NCBI GenBank assembly: GCA_021787535.1
Contig: JAJYLR010000001.1
Coordinates: forward strand, 211,648 to 275,647
Length of the DNA stretch: 64,000 bases
From: a bacterium
Lineage (GTDB): Bacteria > Patescibacteriota > CPR2 > UBA1875 > JAJYID01
Reading direction: 5' to 3'
This document shows positions 5,631 to 55,859 of the stretch, piece by piece. Below the pieces are notes generated by a model. The model was not told the DNA's origin and did no database searches. It saw only the letters and a list, made by a program, of their open reading frames with translations. The first letter of the stretch is position 1. Each line of letters opens with the position of its first letter. Position numbers and translations under genes: made by a program.

Positions 5631-6791
5631 ATGTCCTTCCAAAGAACAAAAAATATTAATCTATCTCCTATTAAACAAATTGAATTAAAGGCCTCTCAAA
5701 TACCAGATGTCATTTCTCTAGCACAAGGTATACCTTCTTTTGATACTCCTGAAGTCATTAAGAAAGCTGCTGTAAAAGCTTTGAGTCGAGGTGATGTGGC
5801 GAAGTACTCATTGACACTTGGTCTGCCTGACCTTAGAGAAACGGTTGAAGAGAAATTGGCAAAAGAGGGGATGCTGTATGATTTCCAAAGTGAAATATTA
5901 GTTACAGTTGGTTCAATTGAAGCAATCACCGCTTCGCTAATAAGTATGATTAGCAAGAATAAAGACGAAATACTGCTTTTTTCTCCTTGTTATACTTCTT
6001 ATCAGGAGGCAGTCAAGGTAGCTGGAGGAAAGCCGGTCTTTGTTAACTTGGATGAAGATCGAGATTGGCAGATCGATATTGATAACCTCAAGAAAAAAAT
6101 ATCTTCTAGGACAGCGGCTATTCTCTTTGCTAATCCAAATAACCCAACCGGCTCGGTTTTTCCAAAGAAAGATCTAATTGTTTTGGGAGATCTAGCGTTA
6201 AAACATGATTTCTTCATCATTCTCGATGAAGTATACAAGGATTTTATTTATGATAATCTTCACTTCTTCACTCTTGCCTCTATTTCAAAATTGAGAGAAA
6301 AGATTATAAGAACATTTAGCTTTTCAAAGGCCTACGCTATGACTGGTTGGCGTATAGGATTTTTACACTCCGATGAGGAAAACGTGAAAGAAATCGTCAA
6401 AGTTCATGATACAATGGTCACTTGCGCACCGGTAATTTCACAATATGCGGCAATTGGTGCCTTTGATTATGCAGAGAGAGAAATAGATGAATTTCGTAAA
6501 AAGTTCACATCCAGGCGAGAGCTTGCTTGCAGGCACTTAGATAAGTTATCTAATTTTTTCAGCTATCAAAAACCAAGCGGATCCTACTTTGTATTCCCTA
6601 AACTTTTAAATGAATCCGATTCTTGGAAGTTTACTCTGGACCTTTTGGAAAAAGCACATGTGGCGGTGGTTCCCGGTGTTGCCTTTAGTCCAAGCGGAGA
6701 AGGTTATATACGGATCAACTTTGGAAGAGAAGAAAAAGATATTACAGCAGCATTTAAAAGGATAGAAAAATATTTAAAAAACAAAAAATGA
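5631..6791 (+). CDS. Pyridoxal-phosphate-dependent class I/II aminotransferase (aspartate aminotransferase family)
   Basis: ANPNNPTGSVF and SFSKAYAMTGWRIGF (PLP-Lys region) motifs. RBS AAGGAGA. Confidence 0.8.
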   Translation: MSFQRTKNINLSPIKQIELKASQIPDVISLAQGIPSFDTPEVIKKAAVKALSRGDVAKYSLTLGLPDLRETVEEKLAKEGMLYDFQSEILVTVGSIEAITASLISMISKNKDEILLFSPCYTSYQEAVKVAGGKPVFVNLDEDRDWQIDIDNLKKKISSRTAAILFANPNNPTGSVFPKKDLIVLGDLALKHDFFIILDEVYKDFIYDNLHFFTLASISKLREKIIRTFSFSKAYAMTGWRIGFLHSDEENVKEIVKVHDTMVTCAPVISQYAAIGAFDYAEREIDEFRKKFTSRRELACRHLDKLSNFFSYQKPSGSYFVFPKLLNESDSWKFTLDLLEKAHVAVVPGVAFSPSGEGYIRINFGREEKDITAAFKRIEKYLKNKK

Positions 6792-7525
6792 AAAGGCAAT
6801 CATTGAAAACCATAGTGCAGCAAATACTGAAATGGCAGGCAAAAGCGTATATTCGAGTTAAAGGGCCGATTGTTATCATTGTCGCCGGAACAAATTCCAG
6901 ATATTGGATAAAAGAAAAGGTGTTAGAGGGATTGAAAGAAAAAGGGTGTGATGCAAGAGCTAATAGGAAAAATTTTAATGCTGAAATAGGGCTTCCGTTA
7001 TCAATCTTGGGCTTAGAATCAGGTGAGGGAGACTTTTATAAATGGAGGAAGACTCTTATACAAGGATTTAAGAGGATATTTCAAGGGGTGTCTCGCGAGT
7101 ATTTGGTTCTAGAAGCAGCTATCGACCGCCCTGATGACATGAAATATTTGCTTGGTATCACTAAACCTCAGGTAGTTATTTTGACAACCATTACTATGAT
7201 ATATCAAGAAAACTTTGATGATCTCGATAGCATAGCTCAAGAATATAGGACTTTGGTTGCAGCAATTCCTACGGGTGGAAAACTTATACTTAATCGTGAT
7301 GATGAAAGAATTGTAAAATTATCGAGATATTTTCAAGGCGTAGTGATCACATATGGCTTTCATCAAGAAGCTGATTTTAAAGCCACTGAGGTTAAAAAAG
7401 AAATCGATGGACAACTCTTTCTATTAAACTCAAAAAATAAAAGATTTACTAAAAAAATACCTCAATTTGGCAAACATCACGTTTATGCTGAACTAGTGAA
7501 AGAGATTGTGCAAGAGATTATTTAA
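6788..7525 (+). CDS. Truncated Mur ligase family protein (MurF-like N-terminal and central region) with a degenerate P-loop
   Basis: VIIVAGTNSRYW occupies the position of the Mur ligase GTNGKTT P-loop. NFNAEIGLPLSILGLE resembles the MurF NxNNxIGVPLTLL motif. Only 245 aa. ATGA overlap with the upstream aminotransferase stop. Confidence 0.45.
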   Translation: MKRQSLKTIVQQILKWQAKAYIRVKGPIVIIVAGTNSRYWIKEKVLEGLKEKGCDARANRKNFNAEIGLPLSILGLESGEGDFYKWRKTLIQGFKRIFQGVSREYLVLEAAIDRPDDMKYLLGITKPQVVILTTITMIYQENFDDLDSIAQEYRTLVAAIPTGGKLILNRDDERIVKLSRYFQGVVITYGFHQEADFKATEVKKEIDGQLFLLNSKNKRFTKKIPQFGKHHVYAELVKEIVQEII

Positions 7526-21061: not shown

Positions 21062-21173
21062 CTATCCTCCCCTAGATAGATTTGCATTTCATAAGAAGTA
21101 TACAACAAAACCTTTAAACAGGCAAACGTTTCTGCTTCAAACTGAGCCAAAAAAGTGGTAAAATGTTCTGGCT

Positions 21174-21965
21174 ATGGATAAATATATTAAAGATTTAGAT
21201 AAAATCCTTTCCGAAGAGTTTCTTTCATTAAAAAAAGAGATTAAGAGCCAAAAGCTCGGGGTTCTTTTTTCCGGAGGAGTAGACAGTTCCCTTATTGCCA
21301 GGTTAGGCGAAGATACCGGACTAAACCCCATTCTTTACAGTTTCGGAACCGAAAAATCCAAAGACAGGCAGTTTGTTTTTGACTTTGCGAGCGATATGAA
21401 AATGCCGCTTGTTTTTGAAGAGGTTAAAACCGGTGAGATTGAAAAAAATATTCCATTGATTAGAGAAGAACTGGCTAAAATCGGCGAGGACCCGAATCCT
21501 ATGCAAGTCGCTCTTGCAGTCGGAGTTTATCTGGTTGGGAAAAAGGCAAAAGCAGACAATGTTAAATTTATGCTGTGCGGGCAGGGGTCTGATGAGCTTT
21601 TTGCCGGATACAAGAAATATGAGGGGTTAAAAGACGATGATTTGCAAAAATCTTTGGAGCGCGACATTGAATCTGTAATGAGATCGGATATCGCCCGCGA
21701 TGCCCATATGCTATCGCTTTCCGGCATTAAACTTTTCGCGCCGTATACCAGCCAAGAATTTATCGACTATGCCCTGAAAATCCCGCTTGAATATAAAGTT
21801 TCGGGCGATACAAAAAAATTTATAATTCGCAAAGTCGCGGAAAAACGCGGACTCCCCGACTATATTTGCGAACGTCCTAAAAATGCCATGCAGTATTCAT
21901 CCGGAATCCAGAAAGTTGTCTCAAAAGTTTGTAAAGCGGAAAGGCAAAATGGACAAACTGCTTGA
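21174..21965 (+). CDS. Stand-alone asparagine synthetase C-terminal-domain-like PP-loop ATP pyrophosphatase (no glutaminase domain)
   Basis: PP-loop LFSGGVDSS and MLCGQGSDELFAGYKKY resemble the AsnB synthetase domain (SGGLDSS / GEGADELFGGY). 263 aa. Confidence 0.65.
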   Translation: MDKYIKDLDKILSEEFLSLKKEIKSQKLGVLFSGGVDSSLIARLGEDTGLNPILYSFGTEKSKDRQFVFDFASDMKMPLVFEEVKTGEIEKNIPLIREELAKIGEDPNPMQVALAVGVYLVGKKAKADNVKFMLCGQGSDELFAGYKKYEGLKDDDLQKSLERDIESVMRSDIARDAHMLSLSGIKLFAPYTSQEFIDYALKIPLEYKVSGDTKKFIIRKVAEKRGLPDYICERPKNAMQYSSGIQKVVSKVCKAERQNGQTA

Positions 21966-23658
21966 AAAAGTAATTCAAGAATCCATTGGCCGAAAAATAG
22001 TTTCAGATGAGGATTTTCTAACTTTAATTAAAGAAAATTTCAAAGGCAAGTCTGAGGCGAAGTTCCCCTCAAATATTGAAATAAGGAAGAAGTACCGGTG
22101 CATGGTTAATAGAGGGATAATACCGCCAAGTCCGGCGCTGGAAAAAATATTGGTTACCAAAAAGATGCGTTCTCTCTCCGGTGTGGCTGTTATCACGGTC
22201 TTGACCAAACCTTGGCCGTGTCCGGGCAAATGCCTGTATTGCCCGGTTCAGGAAAACGTGCCAAAGAGCTATCTTGCAAGCGAACCGGCAGTGATGAGAG
22301 CGATTTTGTGCGAGTACGATCCCTACAAACAGGTGAAAGCTCGGCTAGATTCACTGGCACTAGAAGGCCATCCGACTGACAAGATTGAACTCATTGTTAT
22401 CGGCGGGACATTTTCAGTGTTACCAAGAGATTATCAGGAAGAATACATAAAGTTATGCCTCGATGCATTGAACGGTACAAAAAGCAAAGATCTAAACAAG
22501 GCAAAAAGGGCAAATGAAACAGCCGAGCATCGTCTAGTCGGGCTGACACTCGAAACTCGGCCTGACTATATTACGAAAAAAGAAGTTGAGCGGATGAGAT
22601 ATCTTGGTACGACAAGAGTCGAGCTGGGTGTGCAGTCTGTTTTTGATGAAGTTCTAAAATTTAACAAACGTGGTGCGACTAATGAAGATACAATTTGTGC
22701 GACGCAACTTTTGAAGGATGCGGGACTAAAAATCTGCTACCATATGATGCCCGGACTGCCGGATTCGGATTTAAAAAAAGACCTGGAAATGTTTAAAGTT
22801 ATTTTTACTGATCCGAGATTTCAGCCGGATTACGTAAAGATTTATCCCTGTATGGTAACGAAGGGTTCAGAACTTTATGAGTTTTGGAAATCCGGAAAGT
22901 ATAGGCCTTACACCGACAAGGAATTAGAAAGTTTAATCTGCGAAATTAAAAAGACCGTGCCATATCAAGTGCGGATCATGCGGCTTATTCGCGATATCCC
23001 TTCCACAGATATTGAGGCAGGTTCAAAAGTGACAAATTTACGGCAAAACGTGCAAAAGAAATTACAATCAGAAGGGGTGAGGTGTAAATGTATCCGCTGT
23101 CGGGAAGCGGGATTATTAAAGAAAGATGAAAAAGTAAAAAGTAAAAATTTCTCCTTTGTCATCCCGAGCGACTTCGCGGAGCGACGAGTCGAGGGATCCC
23201 TTCCAGAAAATGATCAATTCCTAATCTCTAATGGCCAATCAATCTCCAATGATCAAAAATCAAGAAGAATGGATTCTGGGCAAGCCAGAATGACATTGTT
23301 GCGTGATGAGTATGAGGCGAGTGGCGGAAAGGAATTTTTTTTGAGTTACGAGACGGGGGATAGAAGTGTCCTGTCCGCTCTTTTACGCTTAAGATTACCC
23401 GGCGAAACGTATTTGCCGGAGTTAAAAGATGCGGCTCTAATCCGCGAAGTCCATACCTATGGCCAGCAGATCGAAATCGGCAAAAGGGGCGATACTCAGC
23501 ACAAAGGGTTGGGCAAAAAATTAATTACGAAAGCTGAGCAGTTGGCGTGCAAAAACGGTTACAAAAAAGCTGCCGTCATCTCCGGGGTCGGTGTCCGTGA
23601 TTATTACCGAAAACTTGGTTATGAACTTGATGGTGAGTATATGATCAAATTGTTATAA
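21946..23658 (+). CDS. elp3: Elp3-like tRNA uridine(34) carboxymethyl-modifying radical SAM / GNAT acetyltransferase
   Basis: Radical-SAM Cys cluster KPWPCPGKCLYCP. C-terminal GNAT region IREVHTYGQQIEIGKRGDTQHKGLGKKLITKAEQLA is typical of Elp3. The likely ATG at 21946 overlaps the upstream gene by 20 nt. The ORF-track start is 21883. Confidence 0.8.
   Translation, partial: KMDKLLEKVIQESIGRKIVSDEDFLTLIKENFKGKSEAKFPSNIEIRKKYRCMVNRGIIPPSPALEKILVTKKMRSLSGVAVITVLTKPWPCPGKCLYCPVQENVPKSYLASEPAVMRAILCEYDPYKQVKARLDSLALEGHPTDKIELIVIGGTFSVLPRDYQEEYIKLCLDALNGTKSKDLNKAKRANETAEHRLVGLTLETRPDYITKKEVERMRYLGTTRVELGVQSVFDEVLKFNKRGATNEDTICATQLLKDAGLKICYHMMPGLPDSDLKKDLEMFKVIFTDPRFQPDYVKIYPCMVTKGSELYEFWKSGKYRPYTDKELESLICEIKKTVPYQVRIMRLIRDIPSTDIEAGSKVTNLRQNVQKKLQSEGVRCKCIRCREAGLLKKDEKVKSKNFSFVIPSDFAERRVEGSLPENDQFLISNGQSISNDQKSRRMDSGQARMTLLRDEYEASGGKEFFLSYETGDRSVLSALLRLRLPGETYLPELKDAALIREVHTYGQQIEIGKRGDTQHKGLGKKLITKAEQLACKNGYKKAAVISGVGVRDYYRKLGYELDGEYMIKLL
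23155..23200. repeat. Hairpin repeat in frame within elp3, minus orientation (TGTCATCC-cgagcgacttcgcggagcgacgagtcgag-GGATCC)
   Basis: Flanking TGTCATCC/GGATCC as in the family at 3842 and 27068. Encodes FVIPSDFAERRVEGS in the linker between the radical-SAM and GNAT domains. Confidence 0.5.
23271..23298. repeat. Hairpin repeat in frame within elp3 (GGATTCTGG-gcaag-CCAGAATGACA)
   Basis: Matches copies at 30893, 61144 (reverse) and 10785. Encodes MDSGQARMTL. Confidence 0.55.
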
Positions 23659-23784
23659 ATTTGATTTTCATGGTATAATAAAGACATCGTTCAAAGGCGA
23701 AAAGTTGTCGTTTTAAAAAACGAAGCACTTGGACATCAAATAGTGGGTGCTTTTTTGGTTTACAACCCGGGAAAGGAACACAAA

Positions 23785-24168
23785 ATGGCAGGAATAGATT
23801 ACAATGATGCAAACGAACAAGAATTGCATATTTGTAATGGATGCGGGGCAGACGCTGTACAGATTGTCAAGGAGTATTGGATGAGTCAAGGCATTGTCAG
23901 GCTTCATTTGGAATGTGAAGCTTGTACCAGAAAAGCTTTTCCGGTTGTTTCCGTCAAGGAGGCAGATAAGCTGCGCTTAGCGATCCATAGACGCCGAGAA
24001 AATGCAAGACGAATACGGCAAAGAGCGGAAGAAGAGAGGCAACTATTTCTAAGTCTAGCGGATGTGGAAGCTAAGGGTGAAGCTTTTCTTGCGCAAAGGC
24101 ATGCGGACTTTGAAGCGTTCTATGCGAATTGGAAGAAAGAGCATCCTATCGACCCAATTGAAAGGTGA
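23785..24168 (+). CDS. Hypothetical zinc-ribbon (CxxC...CxxC) protein
   Basis: ATG at 23785 after GGAAAGGAACA. CNGCGAD...CEAC cysteine pairs. The ORF-track start is 23743. Confidence 0.5.
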   Translation: MAGIDYNDANEQELHICNGCGADAVQIVKEYWMSQGIVRLHLECEACTRKAFPVVSVKEADKLRLAIHRRRENARRIRQRAEEERQLFLSLADVEAKGEAFLAQRHADFEAFYANWKKEHPIDPIER

Positions 24169-24392: not shown

Positions 24393-24734
24393 ATGAGACG
24401 CGTGGCGGAACATTGTACAGACCTTAAGAATATTGATAGGTGTCCCATATGCGGATCGAGAGCTATCAGAATGACCGGCAGCTGCAGGGACGATCGAGAT
24501 CCGGTCTGGATGCTCCTCTTCTTTTGCCACGACTGCGAGGGCGCATACCCGCGCGGCCCGGTAACTTCAGAGCTGAAGGCGGAAATTGCAAGAAAGCATC
24601 TGAGTGAGGAGGGATGTGCCTCGGAGCAGGCGGACAAGGAAATGATGAGAGATGAGGAAGAACTTGCAAGATCTCGTGAGAAAGGGGAAGAATTGACGCT
24701 TGAAATGATGTTTCAAGAATTGGCCCGGAGGTGA
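24393..24734 (+). CDS. Hypothetical zinc-ribbon protein
   Basis: AAGGAGG RBS. CPICGS...CHDCEG motifs. 113 aa. Confidence 0.55.
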   Translation: MRRVAEHCTDLKNIDRCPICGSRAIRMTGSCRDDRDPVWMLLFFCHDCEGAYPRGPVTSELKAEIARKHLSEEGCASEQADKEMMRDEEELARSREKGEELTLEMMFQELARR

Positions 24735-51569: not shown

Positions 51570-51750
51570 TTACAAGCATTTGAATACAAAAAAGGAGGGG
51601 TAACAAATCTGGCAACAGATAAGTGTTGTTTTATGCGTTGAATTCAAAGCAAAAGAACTTTGAAAACTGAAAAGTAGAGAAAACAAAGTCACGTCAATTT
51701 GAACGAGTATCACAACTCAAATTATCAGGAAAGCTTGTCTTTCCACTTTT

Positions 51751-53282
<1,532 letters not shown>

Positions 53283-53535
53283 TAGGGAGATTACCGATTT
53301 ATCGGATTACTTCCAGGTCGAGTCCGTATTTATTACGGGCATGGACTGTGGCATTTTTCTCTACTTTCCAGATTTTCAAGGGTATAAAGAATTGATTTTC
53401 ATGCTAAAAACGGTTAAAATATTGTAGTGAAAAACCGTTTTTTGTTTTGTAAAATTTGAACATTGCCATTGATAATTTGTCTAGCATTCCTCTGCTACCA
53501 AACCAACAAGGATATTCGGATTTTGAATTTCATTT

Positions 53536-53613
53536 TGCGCGTGTAGCTCAGCTGGTTAGAGCGCCACACTGATAATGTGGAGGTCCCTGGTTCAAGTCCA
53601 GGCACGCGCACCA
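53536..53613 (+). tRNA. tRNA-Ile (anticodon GAT)
   Basis: Acceptor gcgcgtg/cacgcgc, anticodon stem ccaca/tgtgg with loop ctGATaa, T arm cctgg-ttcaagt-ccagg, CCA encoded. Confidence 0.85.
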
Positions 53614-53642
53614 TATCTAACATTTAAGATATAGGAGATGAG

Positions 53643-53882
53643 ATGGCATTATTACTAAGAATTGTCGTAAGTTTAGTGGTAATATTTATTGGAGTTGTTT
53701 TGCTTGCGAGGTCATATAAAGTTGTACATATGATCGGGACTAACAACTGGGCTGAACAGCATCTGGGATCGGGTGGAAGCTATACACTAGTAAAGCTCAT
53801 TGGTCTAGTATTTATCATTTTGGCTTTGCTGACAATGTTTGGTATCATTAAACCTTTTGACATAATATTTCCAAGCAAATAG
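53643..53882 (+). CDS. Small two-helix membrane protein encoded between tRNA-Ile and tRNA-Ala
   Basis: TAGGAGA RBS 6 nt upstream of the ATG. 79 aa with two hydrophobic helices. Confidence 0.5.
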   Translation: MALLLRIVVSLVVIFIGVVLLARSYKVVHMIGTNNWAEQHLGSGGSYTLVKLIGLVFIILALLTMFGIIKPFDIIFPSK

Positions 53883-53912
53883 AGACTAAAGTAATTTCAT
53901 TATTGAATTTAT

Positions 53913-53989
53913 GGGCCCGTAGCTCAGTTGGCTAGAGCGCCTCGTTTGCACCGAGGAGGTCGCAGGTTCGATTCCTGTCGGGTCCACCA
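53913..53989 (+). tRNA. tRNA-Ala (anticodon TGC)
   Basis: Acceptor gggcccg/cgggtcc with the G3:U70 alanine identity pair. Anticodon stem cctcg/cgagg with loop ttTGCac. CCA encoded. Confidence 0.85.
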
Positions 53990-54044
53990 AGTAATTATTT
54001 TATAAAAATGGCTTGATAGCCTTTTTTATATTAACTAAATTGAT

Positions 54045-55859
54045 ATGAATTTACGAAACGTAGCAATTATAGCTCACGTTGACCATGGCAAGACTACGCT
54101 TGTCGATGGTCTTTTAAAGCAGTCGAAAACCTTTCGCGAAAACGAGGCGGCTTTTTCTCAGGAGTTGATAATGGATTCAAACGATCAGGAGCGCGAACGC
54201 GGGATTACAATCCTCGCCAAAAACACAGCAGTCAAGTACGGCGACACAAAGATTAACATTATCGACACGCCGGGACACGCTGACTTTGGCGGAGAAGTTG
54301 AGAGAACTTTAAACATGGCAGACGGCGCTATCCTTGTCATTGACGCGCACGAAGGGCCGATGCCGCAAACCAAATTTGTTTTGAAAAAAGCGCTTGAGAT
54401 TGGTTTAAAGCCAATCGTGGTTATCAATAAAATAGACAAACAGAATGCTCAAATCGACAAGGTTATCAGTAAAACCCATGATCTTTTCCTGGATCTTGCC
54501 ACTGATGTCGATCAGCTTGAGTTTCCCATATATTATGCCATCGCCAGAGAAGGAAAAGCTTGGGAAAAGGCGCCTGGAAACATGGGCGAGAAAGCCGATC
54601 TGACTTGCATATTTGAGGCGATAGTAAATCACGTGCCGGCGCCGAAAGTTGAGGAAGGAACATTCCAAATACTCGTCACATCGCTTGAAAGCGACAGCTT
54701 CCAAGGTAAAAATGCTATCGGCAGGATAAAAAGAGGAAGCATTTCGCCCGGTAAAACCATTACATTAATCAAGAAAGACGGTACTACCGAGCAGGCCAGA
54801 GTCGATAAAGTTTATGTGGCCCAGGGCCTCAAAAAAATTGAAGTGTCCGAGGCGCCGGCCGGAGAAATCGTGGCTCTAACCGGGATCAAGAATGCCGGCA
54901 TCGGCGACACGCTGGCAGATAGTGACAATCCGGAAGCATTGCCAACTATTGAAATAGAAGAGCCGACGCTCAAAATGTCAGTTGCCGCCAACACTTCTCC
55001 TTTTGCCGGCAAGGAAGGCCAGTTTGTAACCGGGCGTCAAATTTTGGAGAGGATCAAAAAGGAACTAGAAACAAACGTTTCCTTAAAAATGGAAATGGGA
55101 AATGCCGGCGACTACATATTATCCGGACGCGGCGAACTGCATTTGTCGGTATTTATCGAGACGCTTAGGCGCGAAGGATATGAGCTTGAAGTAGGCAAAC
55201 CCCAGGTGATTACAAAAGAAATAGACGGTGTGAAATGCGAGCCAATGGAAGAACTGACTATTGACGTGGTAACCGAGCACGTCGGTGCGGTGACGGCAGA
55301 GATTGGCAGGCGAAAAGGCGTTCTTCTAAGCCAAGAGGAAAACTCGGACGGCACAACAAGATTGGTATTTGGAATATCTACTCGGGGAATTTTAGGTTTA
55401 AGGAATCAATTACTTACACTTTCCCGTGGAACAGCCATAATGAACTCAATTTTCACCAAGTTTCAGCCGGCCGGAGCCGCTATACCCAAGTTGCGAAACG
55501 GGGTACTTATTGCCAGCGAGTCGGGCAAAGCTGTGGCATATGGGCTAAACAATGCCCAAGGGAGAGGCATAGTTTTTATCAAACCTCAAACTCAGGTGTA
55601 TGAAGGTATGATAGTCGGGCTAAATTCCCGCGAGGGCGACTTGGAAATTAATGTGACCAAAGAAAAGAAGCTGACAAATGTGCGAGCATCAAGTTCTGAT
55701 GAAGCGCTGATCTTGACTCCGCCGACGATATTTACCCTTGAACAATCACTGGATTTCCTGGAGGATGATGAACTCCTTGAAGTAACTCCAAAGAACTTGA
55801 GGCTCCGTAAGAAAATCCTCAACAAAACCGCCAGAAAAAGATCGGGTATGAAAGTTTAG
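54045..55859 (+). CDS. typA: Translational GTPase TypA/BipA
   Basis: [33 protein letters not shown]-domain motifs. 604 aa with EF-G-like domain architecture. Confidence 0.9.

Follow-up and report, generated by a model that had tools for sequence, protein, structure and literature searches.

A stand-alone AsnB-type PP-loop synthetase encoded beside Elp3: a candidate amidoligase for the wobble uridine of tRNA

Which reaction might be catalyzed by an AsnB-type PP-loop synthetase that stands alone and whose gene overlaps the gene of the tRNA-modifying enzyme Elp3? This question is raised by a gene pair within a stretch of bacterial DNA of 64,000 nucleotides, here called the window. The window contains a bacterial 16S rRNA gene at 51747-53281, and the closest homologs of the PP-loop protein carry CPR2 or Patescibacteria labels. 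All features of the two genes described below are located on the plus strand. A role in anti-phage defence was considered and rejected, since the PADLOC defence models gave no match for either the PP-loop protein or Elp3.

The PP-loop protein and its relation to asparagine synthetase

The PP-loop gene (21174..21965) is an open reading frame of 263 amino acids, the product of which is the candidate cm5U34 amidoligase. Its sole Pfam match is Asn_synthase (PF00733, E-value 1.2e-36), and in the alignment to the NCBIfam model NF006949 it covers AsnB positions ~219-462. The N-terminal glutaminase domain of AsnB is absent, as the protein begins at AsnB position ~219 and Pfam gives no GATase match; a class-II (Ntn) glutaminase domain with Cys1, one of the features defining AsnB, is thus lacking, and so is the C-terminal extension of ~100 residues present in AsnB and ASNS. 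This bears out the original prediction that the gene encodes the synthetase half of AsnB only. Upstream of the gene a promoter-like site (TTCAAA-17-TAAAAT, with TG; 21136..21164) ends 10 nt before the ATG, but the consensus scan returned 8 such sites versus 5.8 expected, which is not significant, and the site is of low confidence.

The ATP pyrophosphatase signature of the PP-loop, SGGVDS (residues 33-38; 21270..21287), can be read directly from the sequence and is the counterpart of AsnB S234-S239, its residues S33, G35, D37 and S38 being invariant in an alignment of the family (A1). A second motif, GQGSDELF (residues 136-143; 21579..21602), aligns with SGEGSDE of AsnB. Here, the catalytic Glu348 of AsnB is replaced by Gln137, which is likewise invariant in A1. 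[quoted passage not shown] The third motif, RPKNAMQYSSG (residues 234-244; 21873..21905), was placed by alignment to 1ct9 and contains the residues K236, A238, Q240, Y241, S242 and G244, all invariant in A1. K236 is the counterpart of AsnB Lys449, and the QYSSG portion is restricted to the family.

Furthermore, D384, R387, K429 and K449 of AsnB are kept as D172, R175, K215 and K236, which are invariant or almost so. The TTxR motif of the aspartate site of AsnB, on the other hand, reads MQxxL in the PP-loop family (MQVAL in the protein of the window), and the position of K376 is occupied by D164. We take TTxR, E348 and K376 to belong to the aspartate and adenylate site of AsnB. On sequence level, the ATP/adenylate residues of AsnB are retained in the PP-loop protein, whereas the aspartate-site residues are exchanged. 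With its SGGxDS motif, synthetase fold and Asp/Arg/Lys residues the protein belongs to the AsnB-type adenylating amidoligase superfamily (PF00733 fold). The family is basic with a median pI of 9.2, whereas the protein of the window, with a pI of 7.6, is not.

Both by structure and by sequence, AsnB and human ASNS are the best matches of the PP-loop protein, and its homologs are named 'asparagine synthase' in public sources. This would fit an ammonia-dependent asparagine synthetase, or an AsnB fragment working with a separately encoded glutaminase, a reading that we regard as very improbable. The score against TIGR01536 is 124.7 bits at a cut-off of 267.1 bits and that against NF006949 is 100.4 bits at a cut-off of 499, TTxR, E348 and K376 are all exchanged, the C-terminal residues are missing, and the pairing with elp3 would lack a rationale. 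In addition, a tblastn search of the whole 64-kb window with six class-II glutaminase N-termini gave no match at E<=10, and the search of related loci for a glutaminase yielded GlmS only, at a distance of 4 kb. A true AsnB, or the AsnB fragment beside a separate glutaminase that would have spoken against the original prediction, was rejected on these grounds.

A PP-loop enzyme acting next to Elp3 could also be a partner for 2-thiolation of U34 (s2U34), analogous to NcsA/Ctu1 or MnmA, since thiolation of U34 is carried out by PP-loop ATPases, xm5s2U is usual on the tRNAs for Lys, Glu and Gln, and some homologs show weak Pfam matches to the MnmA HUP domain. The family, however, has no conserved Cys and does not display the catalytic Cys or the Fe-S Cys motif by the PP-loop that characterize MnmA, NcsA/Ctu1 and TtuA. 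This absence of sulfur-transfer residues argues strongly against a thiolase, which was rejected as extremely improbable. The features of QueC-type proteins, namely the QueC fold, the Cys4 zinc site and a Pfam score above the cut-off, are not found in the PP-loop protein either.

Elp3 and the overlap of the two genes

The second gene (21946..23658) encodes a protein of 570 amino acids, which was predicted to be an Elp3 homolog with radical SAM and GNAT/KAT domains. The assignment holds: the protein matches TIGR01211 with an E-value of 2.2e-173 and 577.5 bits at a cut-off of 350 bits, and the HMM searches that had been proposed as a check, which returned PF00733 for the first gene, gave Radical_SAM and Radical_SAM_C matches and weak GNAT matches for the second. 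The radical-SAM cluster motif CPGKCLYC (22219..22242) with C92, C96 and C99 is invariant in an alignment of Elp3 with 14 homologs (A2). In the KAT domain, the motif for binding of acetyl-CoA, QHKGLGKKL (residues 518-526; 23497..23523), is evident from the sequence and from A2, in which Q518, H519 and G523 are invariant.

For archaeal and bacterial Elp3 orthologs the formation of cm5U34 is known (PMC6367351, PMC13315578), and according to the description of the Elp3 acetate tunnel the product is a free carboxylate (PMC13315578). With its motifs intact, the Elp3 of the window would be expected to form cm5U34 as well. An extra feature of this Elp3 is an in-frame insertion of ~47 amino acids (23158..23298; columns 519-571 of A2). 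It lies after the radical-SAM C-terminal region and ahead of the KAT domain and is missing from all 14 aligned homologs, including that of the related locus L001 with 81% identity. A repeat element as its origin was rejected, since its first 41 nt occur nowhere else in the window and the search for inverted repeats gave nothing significant.

The longest open reading frame of elp3 begins at 21883. The ATG at 21946 is supported as the start by the A2 alignment and by a GGAAAGG motif 5 nt upstream. As the stop codon of the PP-loop gene is the TGA at 21963-21965, the two genes, predicted to overlap by about 20 nt, share exactly 20 nt (21946..21965) with this choice of start. The overlap suggests a translational coupling of the PP-loop gene and elp3.

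Synteny with elp3 and the Trm9-like methyltransferase

Conservation of the gene pair among relatives was assessed in 35 bacterial loci with a PP-loop homolog from GTDB species representatives, two of which end at a contig edge, leaving 33 informative loci. In 32 of these elp3 is the immediate neighbour; the lone exception is locus L017, in which no elp3 is within reach of the PP-loop gene. The original prediction, which a scatter among unrelated neighbours would have contradicted, stands in this respect. The coupling is further seen in the window and in the loci L049, L081, L091, L105 and L110. The layout of the pair is mostly divergent; it is tandem and overlapping in the window, L001, L049 and L081, and convergent in L091. 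The remaining flanking genes vary. In the literature, no description was found of Elp3 paired with an AsnB-like protein, nor of a CPR connection.

In a neighbour-joining tree of Elp3, the sequences linked to a PP-loop gene occur at at least four places, and the clade of the window is nested among Elp3 proteins linked to a methyltransferase. These scattered positions suggest that the association of the PP-loop gene with elp3 arose repeatedly. A Rosetta-stone fusion was discarded as a line of evidence: among the best 150 family representatives no fusion of Elp3 to the PP-loop domain was found, and fusions with Dph6 surfaced instead.

The methyltransferase became apparent in 61 metagenome loci seeded by Elp3 and having readable upstream sequence. 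Here, a Trm9-like methyltransferase of ~238 amino acids is encoded divergently from elp3 in 50 loci, the PP-loop gene occupies this slot in three, and neither partner is present in eight; both partners beside one elp3 do not occur. Since most Elp3 loci are devoid of the PP-loop gene, it is an accessory of Elp3 and not one of its core partners. No Trm9-like gene (>=110 bits) was detected within 8 kb of a PP-linked elp3. The best PDB match of the methyltransferase profile is Trm9 (5cm2_Z, E-value 5.6e-29) over its full length, and the alignment includes the HH, W and RYxH motifs.

The enzyme known to modify the carboxyl group of the cm5U34 made by Elp3 is Trm9 (Trm9/Trm112, and the methyltransferase domain of ALKBH8). 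Its target would be the same as that of the PP-loop enzyme, whereas its fold is unrelated and its reaction, a SAM-dependent methyl esterification to mcm5U, differs from the ATP-dependent amidation proposed here. The use of the same slot without co-occurrence therefore independently indicates that the PP-loop enzyme would act on the carboxyl group of cm5U. Together with the synteny, this replacement supports the two genes as a candidate two-enzyme module for U34, as had been proposed; the chemistry of the module is what we infer, and its product is possibly not ncm5U.

The proposed reaction and the relatives outside bacteria

The PP-loop gene and elp3 would form a two-gene module for the modification of the wobble uridine. 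Elp3 would use SAM and acetyl-CoA to place a carboxymethyl group onto C5 of U34, giving cm5U, a reaction that is established for Elp3 enzymes generally. The PP-loop protein would then adenylate the free carboxylate of cm5U34 with ATP under release of PPi, and free ammonia would attack the acyl-adenylate, yielding 5-carbamoylmethyluridine (ncm5U34) and AMP. Free ammonia is the likely nucleophile because the enzyme has no glutaminase domain. We give this candidate function an even chance of being correct. In related genomes the Trm9-like methyltransferase beside elp3 would yield mcm5U instead, and since the slot holds either partner, these small-genome bacteria appear to choose one of two classical fates for cm5U by the gene adjacent to elp3.

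No dedicated enzyme was known for this step according to the original prediction, which agrees with reports from 2019 to 2023 describing the activity converting cm5U to ncm5U as unidentified (PMC7430636, PMC6367351, PMC10275265). That the PP-loop family is this sought enzyme, which is not known from any domain of life, with amide versus methyl ester set by the swap of a single gene, has close to an even chance. Since ncm5U is among the main wobble-uridine modifications of eukaryotic tRNA, a compact bacterial two-gene module would be a candidate for its chemistry amenable to heterologous testing, and would supply a sequence and structure template for locating functional counterparts elsewhere. 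Bacterial Elp3 is no orphan, having either a Trm9-like methyltransferase or a candidate amidoligase as partner, and mcm5U or ncm5U is predicted for uncultured Patescibacteria, whose tRNA modification is essentially unexplored.

The proposed reaction resembles that of several known PP-loop enzymes. Dph6 uses free ammonia to amidate a carboxylate of a translation component, which originates from a radical-SAM pathway, and the tRNA-Ile lysidine synthetase TilS adenylates position 34 of the tRNA, followed by attack of a nitrogen nucleophile. AsnB and ASNS act on aspartate as acyl substrate, in contrast to the tRNA-borne carboxylate proposed here. The beta-lactam synthetase, carbapenam synthetase and TsnB9 differ in that their N-terminal domain is retained, though mostly inactive, their substrates are small molecules and their genes belong to antibiotic gene clusters. 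In QueC and the nitrile synthetases ArtA and ToyM a carboxylate is converted with ATP and ammonia to the amide and further to the nitrile. A second, QueC-like ATP-dependent dehydration would lead to 5-cyanomethyluridine (cnm5U), and another amine such as an amino acid, hydroxylamine or a polyamine would lead to an amide representing a new modification. Such a product other than ncm5U, made from the carboxymethyl group installed by Elp3, is considered unlikely.

More than 40 archaeal homologs do not adjoin elp3 and are located among housekeeping genes (PurB-like, Hel308, HDAC, GlyRS, MCM), which were set aside as uninformative for the function. In five family representatives a Dph6-type diphthine-ammonia ligase domain, the amidase of EF2 diphthine, is fused to the PP-loop protein, so that the ancestral substrate may not be tRNA. 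These observations, along with the bacterial locus L017, would fit an enzyme whose target for amidation or ligation is unrelated to U34, for example a small metabolite or a further component of the translation apparatus, its adjacency to elp3 resulting from shared regulation or horizontal co-inheritance. This is quite unlikely, since the adjacency persists through three orientations and unrelated flanks, the slot is otherwise taken by a Trm9-like enzyme with cm5U as known substrate, the two partners being mutually exclusive, and no Dph6-like gene is present in the 160 loci examined. Bacteria are not known to have diphthamide.

The amidation of cm5U34 remains the preferred reading for the bacterial proteins, and the relatives in archaea, among them Asgard lineages and forms fused to Dph6, may represent an ancient amidase family for the translation apparatus. 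The eukaryotic ASNSD1 was rejected as a close relative, as the genuine ASNSD1 proteins retrieved reach 73-79 bits with the family profile, less than the 104-110 bits of AsnB/ASNS. Archaeal members of the PP-loop family, which score 230 bits with its profile, have an intact N-terminal MCAIAGG glutaminase domain, which counts in favour of ammonia as the nucleophile.

The PP-loop protein and its overlap with elp3

The PP-loop gene (21174–21965, plus strand) encodes a protein of 263 aa. Asn_synthase (PF00733) is its sole Pfam match (E 1.2e-36), and against NCBIfam it aligns with AsnB positions ~219–462, scoring far under the cut-offs (124.7 vs. 267 bits and 100 vs. 499 bits). This agrees with the original prediction of a synthetase half only. 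The proposed lack of an N-terminal glutamine amidotransferase domain was borne out as well, since no glutaminase domain is present in the protein and no class-II glutaminase-like sequence was found within the entire 64-kb window, even at E ≤ 10. An AsnB fragment with a separately encoded glutaminase is likewise not what was found, as glutaminase-like matches in related loci were limited to GlmS, 4 kb away.

In the comparison with characterized enzymes, the values were 27.6 for E. coli AsnB (alignment over 247 of the 263 residues), 24.5 for beta-lactam synthetase, 24.4 for carbapenam synthetase (CarA), 23.9 for human ASNS and 21.2 for TsnB9, all of which activate a carboxylate by adenylation before forming a C–N bond; tRNA PP-loop enzymes, QueC and the nitrile synthetase ArtA gave 9–13. 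The PP-loop is intact (SGGVDS, nt 21270–21287, plus strand, as read from the sequence). Mapping onto the AsnB structure 1ct9 together with family conservation equates D172, R175, K215 and K236 with AsnB D384, R387, K429 and K449; the adenylation apparatus is kept. In contrast, the TTxR segment of AsnB is replaced by MQVAL, E348 by Q137, which is invariant in the family, and K376 by D164, and the final ~100 AsnB residues are missing. The family has a median pI of 9.2. It has no conserved cysteine, which speaks strongly against a role as thiolase. Taken together, the retained and replaced residues point to an active-looking adenylating amidoligase with an acyl substrate other than aspartate.

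The family comprises 1,326 representatives (50% identity clustering, E ≤ 1e-30), named "asparagine synthase" or "hypothetical protein" in public sources, and DUF7411, a domain of unknown function, is a co-matching Pfam family. Defence-system models matched neither the PP-loop protein nor Elp3. We predict that this family is a variant of the AsnB superfamily with a new function.

The downstream elp3 homolog (21946–23658, plus strand) is complete (TIGR01211, E 2.2e-173, 577 bits vs. a cut-off of 350 bits), and alignment with 14 homologs shows no variation in its radical-SAM Cys triad or acetyl-CoA motif. The longest ORF starts at 21883; homolog alignment and a GGAAAGG motif favor the ATG at 21946. 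With the PP-loop stop codon at 21963–21965, the overlap amounts to 20 nt, as originally estimated. An in-frame insertion of ~47 aa (VIPSDFAERRVEGSLPENDQFLISNGQSISNDQKSRRMDSGQARM, 23158–23298) separates the radical-SAM C-terminal region of the window's Elp3 from its KAT domain; no aligned homolog has it, not even the one of locus L001, which is 81% identical. The first 41 nt of the insertion are GC-rich and unique in the window.

Conserved pairing and a Trm9-like alternative neighbor of elp3

Scanning one genome per GTDB species yielded 80 loci with PP-loop homologs. Thirty-five are bacterial (CPR2, Microgenomates, Gottesman- and Roizmanbacteria, Paceibacterota, Minisyncoccia, Anaerolineae and some mislabelled MAGs), and elp3 is the immediate neighbor in 32 of these. 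Two others are cut by a contig edge on the relevant side. The single informative bacterial locus without elp3 (L017:8001–8753; sequence available for 8 kb on the upstream and 3.3 kb on the downstream side) has a histidine-phosphatase-like gene as neighbor. A divergent, head-to-head layout is commonest; tandem genes with overlap occur in the window, L001, L081 and L049, and a convergent arrangement in L091. The L091 protein (6299–7219, minus strand), a more distant member of 306 aa that scores 160 bits on the family profile and shares 26% identity with the window protein, is encoded ~580 bp downstream of elp3 in this third orientation. Since the genes beyond the pair vary between loci, the conserved element is the pairing itself. 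Archaeal homologs (28–36% identity; Bathyarchaeia, Thorarchaeota, Thermoplasmata, Hydrothermarchaeota) are not adjacent to elp3 and have housekeeping genes as neighbors.

For the reverse test, 80 metagenome loci were seeded with Elp3 (42–67% identity to the window Elp3), and counts were made for the 61 in which Elp3 is full-length and the upstream sequence extends for 1 kb or more. The PP-loop gene is present in three of them. In fifty, a gene for a class-I SAM methyltransferase (~238 aa) points away from elp3 in the exact slot that the PP-loop gene takes elsewhere (e.g., L118:234–947 and L086:3232–3990, both minus strand, from loci L082–L160), and eight have neither. The best solved relative of the methyltransferase profile is Yarrowia Trm9 (5cm2_Z, E 5.6e-29), and the Trm9-type motifs HH, W and RYxH all fall inside the alignment. 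The margin is modest (104 bits for Trm9 vs. 94 bits for generic archaeal methyltransferases), and therefore we use "Trm9-like" as a putative label. MurC-type neighbors indicate that these loci are bacterial. A description of this apparent bacterial Elp3–Trm9 (mcm5U) module was not found among the papers searched.

No PP-linked elp3 has a genuine member of the methyltransferase family (at least 110 bits) nearer than 8 kb. When 109 Elp3 sequences are placed on a rough NJ tree, those that are PP-linked occupy at least four places and the window clade lies among methyltransferase-linked ones, which suggests repeated exchange of the elp3 partner. Trm9 is the known modifier of the cm5U carboxyl group (PMC6367351, PMC10275265). 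The mutual exclusion, the shared slot and the carboxylate-activating chemistry are most simply read as the PP-loop enzyme acting on this same carboxyl. The original proposal of a two-enzyme U34 modification module withstands refutation by lost synteny or by a separate glutaminase, and the exchange for a Trm9-like gene lends it independent support; its amidation chemistry is still a prediction.

Proposed chemistry and archaeal relatives

Formation of cm5U34 is established for the Elp3 family; its tRNA specificity has been described (PMC6367351), and a free-carboxylate product is consistent with PMC13315578. We propose that the PP-loop enzyme would then adenylate the carboxylate of cm5U34, and attack of ammonia on the adenylate would yield ncm5U34, the evidence here covering gene content, conservation and fold. 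The product could instead be the nitrile cnm5U, which is present in archaeal tRNA (PMC3895270, PMC11323500; neither mentions an enzyme for it). Another amide is possible too, as the nucleophile varies among AsnB-fold enzymes. For ncm5U, several papers state that the enzyme or mechanism is unknown (PMC7430636, PMC6367351, PMC10275265), and the PP-loop/Elp3 pairing bears on this long-standing question. Full-text searches retrieved no paper in which Elp3 is linked to CPR bacteria or to a partner of the AsnB-like or PP-loop type.

Regarding the nucleophile, archaeal members (230 bits against the family profile) bear at their N-terminus a glutaminase domain (MCAIAGG) that includes the catalytic Cys, so that ammonia is the nucleophile in these forms; in further members the N-terminus is degenerate (MAG or MSG). 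The CPR proteins lack both a glutaminase domain and a partner glutaminase, and thus likely use free ammonia. Five representatives from archaeal contexts (P0276, P0298, P0370, P0317 and P0344; loci L161:5933–7507 and L162:3769–5253), with or without the N-terminal glutaminase, are fused to a Dph6-type diphthine-ammonia ligase domain (PF01902), placing two different ATP-dependent amidating modules on one chain. Due to these fusions, the archaeal family may be tied to EF2 diphthamide or a wider amidation of the translation apparatus. The L161 surroundings are archaeal (eIF6, L31e, S19e). No Dph6-like gene was found in the 160 loci examined. Orthology with eukaryotic ASNSD1 is unsupported, since the human and mouse proteins score 73–79 bits on the family profile, below AsnB/ASNS (104–110 bits).

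Host and further features of the window

The window DNA is bacterial: it contains a bacterial 16S rRNA gene (51747–53281), and the nearest protein homologs carry CPR2 or Patescibacteria labels. The 16S rRNA gene is followed by tRNA-Ile(GAT), tRNA-Ala(TGC) and then directly by a BipA/TypA GTPase gene (54045–55859; whole region 51747–55859). As no 23S rRNA was detected across the window, the rRNA genes appear to be unlinked. Just 3′ of elp3 lie two small ORFs (23743–24168, 141 aa; 24393–24734, 113 aa) that each contain zinc-ribbon-like CxxC...CxxC motifs. Neither belongs to a Pfam family, and the second has a faint Lar-like match only; L001 has similar-sized ORFs (113 and 113 aa) at the same place. 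In the stretch upstream of the PP-loop gene (21136–21173), the only promoter-like site (21136–21164), a match that is not statistically significant, ends 10 nt 5′ of the ATG and, if real, would imply a leaderless or nearly leaderless mRNA.
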